From Escherichia coli (lineage in GTDB: Bacteria > Pseudomonadota > Gammaproteobacteria > Enterobacterales > Enterobacteriaceae): 64,000 nucleotides of DNA. Each line of letters starts with the position of its first letter. The stretch's first letter is position 1. The stretch lies in the NCBI RefSeq assembly GCF_048403405.1, contig NZ_CP183129.1; one strand, 5' to 3'. The notes under the pieces were generated by a model that was not told where the DNA came from, did not search any database, and saw only the letters and a program-made list of their open reading frames with translations. Below, one piece after another: positions 43,348 through 44,289 of this stretch. A program made the position numbers and the translations under genes.

Positions 43348-43378
43348 AATGCCACGGATTGCGTGGCATTCTTATTTT
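43348..43378 (+). terminator. intrinsic terminator after yfeY, immediately upstream of the yfeX RBS
   Basis: AATGCCACG-gattg-CGTGGCATT perfect 9-bp stem followed by CTTATTTT. Confidence 0.65.
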
Positions 43379-43389
43379 CAGGAGGAACA

Positions 43390-44289
43390 ATGTCTCAGGT
43401 TCAGAGTGGCATTTTGCCAGAACATTGCCGCGCGGCGATTTGGATCGAAGCCAACGTGAAAGGGGAAGTTGACGCCCTGCGTGCGGCCAGTAAAACATTT
43501 GCCGATAAACTGGCAACTTTTGAAGCGAAATTCCCGGATGCGCATCTTGGTGCGGTGGTTGCCTTTGGTAACAACACCTGGCGCGCTCTGAGCGGCGGCG
43601 TTGGGGCCGAAGAGCTGAAAGATTTTCCGGGCTACGGTAAAGGCCTTGCGCCGACGACCCAGTTCGATGTGTTGATCCACATTCTTTCTCTGCGTCACGA
43701 CGTAAACTTCTCTGTCGCTCAGGCGGCGATGGAAGCCTTTGGTGACTGCATTGAAGTGAAAGAAGAGATCCACGGCTTCCGTTGGGTTGAAGAGCGTGAC
43801 CTGAGCGGCTTCGTTGACGGTACTGAAAACCCGGCGGGTGAAGAGACGCGCCGCGAAGTGGCGGTTATCAAAGACGGCGTGGATGCAGGCGGCAGCTATG
43901 TGTTTGTGCAGCGTTGGGAGCACAACCTCAAGCAGCTCAACCGGATGAGCGTTCACGATCAGGAGATGATGATCGGGCGCACCAAAGAGGCCAACGAAGA
44001 GATTGACGGCGACGAACGTCCGGAAACCTCTCACCTGACCCGCGTTGATCTGAAAGAAGATGGCAAAGGGCTGAAGATTGTTCGACAGAGCCTGCCGTAC
44101 GGCACCGCCAGCGGTACGCACGGTCTGTACTTCTGTGCCTACTGCGCGCGTCTGCATAACATTGAGCAGCAACTGCTGAGCATGTTTGGCGATACCGATG
44201 GCAAACGTGATGCGATGTTGCGTTTTACCAAACCGGTCACTGGCGGCTATTACTTCGCACCGTCGCTGGACAAGCTGATGGCGCTGTAA
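43390..44289 (+). CDS. yfeX: Dyp-type haem peroxidase YfeX
   Basis: ATG 43390 after CAGGAGG: [26 protein letters not shown]... (299 aa). Confidence 0.9.

Follow-up and report, generated by a model that had tools for sequence, protein, structure and literature searches.

Organisation of the yfeY-yfeX locus

The window, a stretch of 64,000 nt from Escherichia coli (RefSeq assembly GCF_048403405.1, contig NZ_CP183129.1), carries the local gene order amiA (-), ypeA, yfeZ, yfeY and yfeX (all +) and murP (-), according to the list of open reading frames (ORFs) and RefSeq annotation. The stop codon of yfeY ends at 43294 and the ATG of yfeX lies at 43390, leaving a spacer of 95 nt, the 3' part of which consists of AATGCCACG-GATTG-CGTGGCATT (43348-43370), CTTATTTT (43371-43378), C, AGGAGG (43380-43385), AACA and the ATG. 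The features of the locus are as follows.

42719..43294, + strand: coding sequence of yfeY, an RpoE-regulated lipoprotein and the gene terminated by the hairpin (ORF list; RefSeq annotation of matching E. coli; MG1655 b2432).
43296..43309, + strand: FNR-like candidate site, TTGCG-tctg-AACAA (7 of 10 matches to TTGAT-N4-ATCAA; stacked upstream sequences).
43332..43337, + strand: -10 hexamer of P1, TAAAAT (TAcAAT, TATAAT and TAGAAT in other genera; the T-A-n-A-A-T columns are at least 90% conserved in alignment A1).
43345, + strand: P1, transcription start of yfeX with a 45-nt leader, 3 nt 5' of the hairpin (SMRT-Cappable-seq and 5'RACE-seq).
43348..43370, + strand: terminator hairpin with a 9-bp stem and a 5-nt loop, at which yfeY transcripts end and which makes up nt +4 to +26 of the yfeX leader from P1 (sequence, scan, folding and covariation).
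43364..43372, + strand: putative extended -10 of P2, TGgCATTAT in K-12 and TGgCATTCT in the window (by eye, from the position of the 43380 start and the allele sequences).
43371..43378, + strand: T-tract, CTTATTTT in the window, ATTATTTT in K-12 and mostly CTTTTTTT in other genera (window sequence, alleles and alignment).
43372..43376, + strand: TTATT, after which IS200C has inserted in some E. coli, between terminator and Shine-Dalgarno sequence (junctions in L002, L003 and L087).
43374..43375, + strand: RNA 3' ends in vivo in K-12 (Term-seq).
43380, + strand: P2, a 5' end of yfeX mRNA with a 10-nt leader that begins on the Shine-Dalgarno sequence, 2 nt past the T-tract (SMRT-Cappable-seq and 5'RACE-seq in K-12).
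43380..43385, + strand: Shine-Dalgarno sequence of yfeX, AGGAGG (window sequence; across 75 sequences A-G-G-A never varies and the flanking G-G is conserved to at least 90%).
43390..44289, + strand: coding sequence of yfeX, a DyP-type peroxidase/porphyrinogen peroxidase (ORF list; RefSeq annotation).

The identities of the genes and the ATG of yfeX agree with the RefSeq annotation of K-12 and many other strains. An in-frame GTG at 43363, where the ORF list begins the reading frame, was rejected as a start, being neither preceded by a Shine-Dalgarno sequence nor the annotated start. In MG1655 the genes lie on the minus strand, with yfeX at 2549646-2550545, and published positions were converted by the relation window position = 2593935 - NC_000913.3 position; at this locus, U00096.2 coordinates equal those of NC_000913.3 minus 1978 (yfeX = 2547668-2548567). 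The K-12 spacer differs from that of the window at a single position, 43371, and all RNA-end and ChIP data discussed here are from K-12, with A at this position where the window strain has C. A sequence-only reading of the same DNA had described a 9-bp hairpin with a T-tract running to 43378, an adjoining Shine-Dalgarno sequence and an ATG at 43390, and every one of these coordinates is correct.

Two further observations were made on the far side of yfeX. In K-12, murP and yfeX are separated by yfeW (pbp4b); the window has lost this gene except for its first 29 codons (MKRTMLYLSLLAVSCSVSAAKYPVLTESS) and a stop at 44375-44464 (-). Between the convergent yfeX and murP/yfeW' there is a strong hairpin with an A-run on one side and a T-run on the other (44310-44345); it folds at -19.8 and -24.5 kcal/mol on the two strands (z -5.3 and -6.4), and this stability on both strands suggests that it is likely to be a bidirectional terminator.

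A mapped Rho-independent terminator adjoins the yfeX ribosome-binding site

A consensus scan ranked the hairpin in the spacer as the top terminator-like site between 41500 and 45500, with 9 pairs, 5 of them G-C. Its RNA folds at -13.6 kcal/mol, compared with -4.3 ± 2.0 kcal/mol for shuffled sequences (z -4.55; 0 of 200 shuffles as good), and the hairpin is thus beyond chance. As in intrinsic terminators, the stable G+C-rich stem is followed directly by a U-rich tail, CUUAUUUU. On the opposite strand the hairpin has no U-tract, which makes the element unidirectional.

Indeed, Term-seq of MG1655 (Adams et al. 2021, PMC7815308) gave an RNA 3' end at 2550560 (window 43375; 30,332 reads in LB at OD 0.4) and, in a second condition, at 2550561 (window 43374; 41,034 reads). 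These ends lie 4-5 nt past the stem and 15-16 nt before the yfeX ATG in K-12, a position at which Term-seq alone reads termination and exonuclease trimming back to a stable hairpin alike. The 3' end has a Rho score of 0.76, not significant, with or without bicyclomycin, and an intrinsic-terminator score of 10.86, where a score of at least 3 suggests intrinsic termination (PMC7815308). The published K-12 data therefore provide both a 3' end within the U-tract in vivo and independence of Rho, as befits an intrinsic terminator. Together with the folding energy and the covariation of the stem described below, they bear out the sequence-only reading in that the terminator is real: the hairpin is the experimentally mapped terminator of yfeY and adjoins the ribosome-binding site of yfeX. 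In the same dataset, coverage in 800-nt windows was 121 upstream and 88 downstream of the hairpin, the latter being 73% of the former, so that in spite of the terminator the amount of yfeX RNA almost equals that of yfeY RNA.

Transcripts and start sites of yfeX

Full-length transcripts from SMRT-Cappable-seq (Yan et al. 2018, PMC6131387, Data 2) include a terminated ypeA-yfeZ-yfeY transcript from the transcription start site (TSS) 2552167, a read-through ypeA-yfeZ-yfeY-yfeX transcript from the same TSS, and two yfeX-only transcripts from TSSs 2550590 (window 43345) and 2550555 (window 43380). The read-through isoform shows that the terminator is leaky; the read-through counts of that study (Data 1) have no row for the yfeY-yfeX terminator site. 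Exactly the same two yfeX starts were obtained by 5'RACE-seq, an unrelated protocol (Kim et al. 2012, PMC3415461), at U00096.2 positions 2548612 (A43345; 17 reads, 45-nt leader) and 2548577 (A43380; 8 reads, 10-nt leader).

These data bear on what the sequence-only reading had concluded about the expression of yfeX. A conventional promoter would indeed not fit between the terminator and the Shine-Dalgarno sequence. As the reading had argued, transcription of yfeX comes from read-through and from promoters that lie upstream of the hairpin or within it, given the K-12 read-through isoform and the starts at 43345 and 43380. A start downstream of 43378, which it had named as refuting its view and called implausible, has nevertheless been reported in K-12 by two independent methods, at 43380. 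The reading had also named transcription of yfeX entirely by unregulated read-through as an outcome that would speak against it, and this is contradicted by the two yfeX-specific TSSs.

The first of these, P1, has its -10 hexamer TAAAAT 8 nt upstream of the mapped start and no recognisable -35 box. For σ70, ChIP-seq gave a peak centred at about window 43356 that differed significantly under anaerobic conditions, being higher there (132.69 vs 524.25) (Myers et al. 2013, PMC3688515). The P1 RNA begins with AAC, followed by the hairpin, CUUAUUUU and the Shine-Dalgarno sequence. Given a start so closely upstream, the terminator is also the first ~30 nt of the yfeX mRNA.

The second 5' end lies 7-8 nt downstream of a putative extended -10 that coincides with the 3' arm of the hairpin and the first bases of the T-tract. 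From this mapped end we infer that P2 may be a true promoter; it could also be a processed end leaking through the 5'-PPP enrichment. P2 is the weakest link of the scheme, owing to its few reads (8) and to its position 5 nt from the mapped 3' end. As the C/A difference at 43371 falls in the putative -10, P2 may be weaker or absent in the window strain. Two other promoter assignments were rejected by eye, namely a sigma-54 promoter (TGGCAT...TTTTC), in which the -12 GC is missing, and a sigma-E promoter based on the conserved TCTGAA, for which the -35 spacing would be ~21 nt.

Upstream, 5'RACE-seq placed a yfeY TSS at 2549468 (U00096.2; window ~42489), inside yfeZ and 230 nt upstream of yfeY (PMC3415461), and no sigma-E promoter was recognisable there by eye. 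Sigma-E studies conflict on whether yfeX follows yfeY: yfeY-yfeX is given as one unit, yet yfeX was not induced while yfeY rose 3.3-fold.

Conservation of the spacer

One scan of species-representative genomes gave 80 yfeX loci, from Escherichia to Buttiauxella and Pluralibacter, and about 75 distinct Enterobacteriaceae sequences were compared. The order of elements is constant among them: yfeY stop, TTTG(C/A)..., a variable block, an A-run, TAnAAT, hairpin, T-tract, CAGGAGG and ATG. The TAnAAT hexamer is at least 90% conserved and lies 9-15 nt from the hairpin, which has the core GCCAC(G/A)...(C/T)GTGG(C/T) and a loop that varies freely (3-8 nt). A T-tract is conserved, in most cases with greater length in other genera, and the distance from the end of the stem to the ATG is 17-21 nt in most of the sequences. 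From the yfeY stop to the -10 box no sequence conservation was found except for the TTG block and the A-run; the block between these two is divergent in sequence and fixed in length, and serves as an internal neutral control. The conserved A-run lies at 43322-43327.

Pairing of the hairpin helix is maintained in 86.7% of cells across 75 sequences, compared with 24-57% when the partner is slid by 1-3 columns. Double-sided changes number 18, compared with 5.4 ± 2.0 in shuffles (0 of 500), and include GCCGCG/CGCGGC and ACACCAC/GTGGTGT; many G-C to G-U changes were also found.

Within E. coli, the hairpin is identical in all seven alleles read, the only variable spacer positions upstream of the Shine-Dalgarno sequence being 43343 (T/C/A) and 43371 (C/A/G); at 43387 there is a further difference in one of the seven. 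Of 5426 matching E. coli records, all except one show at least 95% identity over the 63 nt that surround the hairpin. The exact 61- to 63-mer of the window occurs in 530 of the 5426, K-12 and most strains being one base off. The C at 43371 is probably the older state, since C is also found in the retrieved sequences of other Escherichia, Salmonella and several Citrobacter. Two public records look mislabelled, a contig assigned to 'Chryseobacterium sp. 18061' (L041) with an Enterobacteriaceae-type yfeX locus, and a 'Citrobacter sp.' MAG contig (L005) whose spacer is an E. coli allele and whose yfeX product is that of the window.

Proposed function of the hairpin

Combining the sequence comparison with the published transcript ends, we consider it likely that the hairpin and T-tract are an ordinary constitutive, partly leaky Rho-independent terminator situated inside the promoter and leader of yfeX, which is fed by read-through, by an attenuated P1 and possibly by P2. 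The terminator ends transcripts that originate at the ypeA promoter or at the sigma-E promoter of yfeY, and lies within the yfeX promoter and leader instead of between yfeY and a downstream yfeX promoter. RNA from the conserved, -35-less P1, which starts at 43345, 3 nt before the hairpin, would meet its own terminator at about +30, like ampC RNA at the frd terminator, and a fraction may stop as a ~30-nt RNA. RNA that passes would begin with a 3-nt overhang and a stem, and continue into a U-rich leader, free of structure, next to the Shine-Dalgarno sequence, which the T-tract would leave single-stranded. A 5' stem and an unstructured U-rich leader of this kind favour RNA stability and ribosome loading, and the 5' hairpin may stabilise P1 transcripts. 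In the yfeX mRNA, the hairpin would most likely act as a fixed attenuator and 5'-terminal stem-loop.

The second 5' end at 43380 in K-12 would draw its -10 apparently from the 3' arm of the hairpin and the T-tract. Taken together, yfeX would receive three inputs, namely read-through from upstream, P1 transcripts that escape their own attenuator and possibly P2. A leaky terminator combined with separate yfeX promoters would account for the flat response of yfeX during the 3.3-fold rise of yfeY.

Three other readings of the hairpin were weighed, along with a bolder extension of the proposed one. That it is a conditional terminator, a switch whose regulated read-through sets yfeX expression, was the view of the sequence-only reading. 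Terminated and read-through isoforms both exist, the sigma-E studies disagree on whether yfeX follows yfeY, and the analogous ampC attenuator is reported to show growth-rate-dependent read-through (PMC6045580). Folding, however, predicted no alternative pairing in the spacer or the leaders, and nothing upstream pairs with either arm; only 3 nt precede the stem in the P1 leader, leaving no room for an antiterminator. The Shine-Dalgarno sequence lies 3' of the release point, so no ribosome can act on the termination decision, and the sole ATG found by eye in the yfeX leader (43349) is inside the stem and has no Shine-Dalgarno sequence. An Rfam scan of 41000-46000 (E<=1) gave no match to the hairpin or leader, only a chance lncRNA match elsewhere. 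In addition, the 3' end is insensitive to bicyclomycin, the sequence from the yfeY stop to the -10 is unconserved apart from the TTG block and the A-run, and yfeX has TSSs of its own. The leader thus offers neither an antiterminator nor a ligand, protein or ribosome sensor as expected of a regulated attenuator or riboswitch, and we regard a switch as unlikely. With starts of yfeX just before and just after the hairpin, the locus shows a compact overlap like that of frd and ampC, and a switch is not demonstrated.

The hairpin might instead be chiefly an RNA-stability element, a 3' barrier for yfeY and a cap-like 5' stem for yfeX, the mapped 3' end arising from exonuclease trimming and not from termination. 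The 3' end just 4-5 nt past the stem, the stem at the extreme 5' end of the P1 RNA and the downstream coverage of 73% are all in keeping with this. Against it stand the conserved T-tract, usually longer in other genera, the intrinsic-terminator score of 10.86 and the capped full-length reads that stop after yfeY, and such stability roles can go along with termination without taking its place. As the main function, RNA stability is accordingly improbable.

A bolder extension of the overlapping terminator, to which we give similarly little credence, is a three-in-one element kept in more than 75 enterobacterial lineages, which would stop yfeY polymerases and offer TGgCATnnT as an extended -10, such that a polymerase released at 43375 restarts at 43380, 5 nt on; or else P1-initiated polymerases might be terminated differently from those arriving from upstream. 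If true, upstream activity would become fresh, short-leader yfeX mRNA instead of being simply blocked.

Finally, it is very improbable that the 20-bp palindrome ATGCCACG-N4/5-CGTGGCAT is mainly the DNA operator of a dimeric repressor at +4 to +26 of P1 with the RNA hairpin as a by-product: the stem sequence itself, beyond its pairing, is at least 90% conserved across genera and a place just downstream of a TSS is typical of operators, but the distance between half-sites ranges over 3-8 nt (4 nt in the majority of genera and 5 nt in Escherichia), too much variation for a dimer; changes from G-C to G-U on one side preserve the pairing of the RNA at the expense of DNA symmetry; a conserved T-tract follows to which the RNA 3' end maps; and there is no known regulator. 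Wobble pairs and variable half-site spacing speak for an RNA hairpin rather than an operator bound by protein.

Post-transcriptional regulators were considered separately. A GGA at the hairpin loop (43356-43358) and GGA repeats in the Shine-Dalgarno sequence (43381-43386), ~25 nt apart, resemble a two-site CsrA target. This candidate was dropped on reading the loops listed, among which the GGA occurs only in Escherichia and L077. A literature search found no paper linking yfeX with CsrA and no relevant paper on an Hfq-bound sRNA from the yfeY 3' UTR.

Comparison with known terminators and leaders

With canonical Rho-independent terminators the yfeY terminator shares a G+C-rich stem, a short loop, a U-tract, a bicyclomycin-insensitive 3' end and partial read-through. 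Unlike these, which are usually followed by a separate promoter region, it has the Shine-Dalgarno sequence of yfeX 2 nt past its T-tract and promoter elements that flank or overlap the hairpin.

The closest parallel is the terminator of the frd operon, which doubles as the attenuator of ampC (Grundstrom & Jaurin 1982; Jaurin et al. 1981, as summarised in PMC6045580). At both loci, one hairpin with a U-tract ends the upstream operon and at the same time forms part of the short leader of the gene that follows, the promoter of which precedes the terminator. The ampC 3' end is 16-18 nt before ampC, the same geometry as for yfeX, both distances being 15-18 nt in the same Term-seq tables. As at frd/ampC, the TSS of the downstream gene (P1, 43345) precedes the terminator of the upstream gene (43348-70), in two independent datasets. 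For ampC the promoter is embedded in the coding sequence of frdD, whereas P1 is in the 95-nt spacer past the yfeY stop, its -10 (43332-37) and the FNR-like site (43296-309) both being downstream of 43294. As P1 is outside the yfeY coding sequence, the yfeY-yfeX arrangement is a variant of frd/ampC and not a copy. It also differs from ampC in the second 5' end reported beyond the terminator. The yfeX hairpin, which starts at +4, is presumably closer to its TSS than that of ampC.

Leaders of the ompA type carry a 5'-terminal stabilising stem-loop. The yfeX leader appears similar in having a stable hairpin a few nt from the 5' end of the P1 RNA (3 unpaired nt), and differs in that its hairpin also carries a U-tract and terminates.

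The Term-seq sheet for LB at OD 0.4 lists eleven genes preceded, at a distance of 15-25 nt from the start of the ORF, by a 3' end that scores at least 3 as an intrinsic terminator: dnaJ, bglG, rpsO, yjeT, yggN, nhaR, ampC (frdD terminator, -18, score 6.4), ygiV, slyB, rpsP and yfeX (-15, score 10.86). A terminator directly before an ORF is thus rare and not unique. The yfeX case is another member of the frd/ampC kind, the underlying data for which stand unremarked in public supplementary tables. It provides a second well-conserved natural example of a design in which a single hairpin terminates one gene and serves its downstream neighbour as leader or attenuator, and it reconciles conflicting operon calls, namely the yfeYX unit of RegulonDB, the sigma-E regulon lists and a yfeX that behaves independently. 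For annotation and for the reuse of terminators as parts, it carries the warning that no room for a promoter does not mean no promoter, since start sites can flank or overlap a terminator. The current understanding of transcription is unchanged by this case, which is of modest interest.

A possible role of FNR at P1

The FNR-like site lies directly 3' of the yfeY stop and is centred at -42.5 from the P1 start, the position of a class II activator; the distance of its TTG from the -10 box, 35-36 nt, is kept in the different genera. Taken by itself the motif lacks significance, since 315 matches with at most 3 mismatches occur in the window where 220 are expected. Three peak callers find an FNR ChIP-seq peak centred at about window 43320 (PWM ln p -7.48; Myers et al. 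2013, PMC3688515), which is ~17 bp from the candidate site and places FNR near -41.5 in vivo. In the same study, yfeX is in Table S9, among FNR peaks without FNR-dependent change in expression, and a gene-name search of Tables S8 and S12 did not return it; FNR-dependent transcription of yfeX is thus not borne out there, nor did its expression change with O2 in that work. Public arrays have been read as anaerobic induction of yfeX (Dailey et al. 2011). P1 resembles class II FNR-dependent promoters in its site near -41.5, the missing -35, the FNR peak and the anaerobic rise of σ70, and differs from them in that its site matches at only 7 of 10 positions and that no FNR-dependent change in yfeX RNA is reported (PMC3688515). 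FNR occupies the spacer, and we hypothesise that it may control P1.

IS200C insertions between terminator and Shine-Dalgarno sequence

In some E. coli, IS200C has inserted between the terminator and the Shine-Dalgarno sequence, always after TTATT and in the orientation of yfeX. Copies were found at 2190-3010 in L002, 3695-5216 in L003 and 1460-2272 in L087, once as two tandem copies, and ~49 of the 5426 E. coli records match only up to 43376. The right end of the element (the hairpin CCTCCGGCTATGCCGGAGG, then ATATTTATT) remakes a hairpin and T-tract directly before CAGGAGG.
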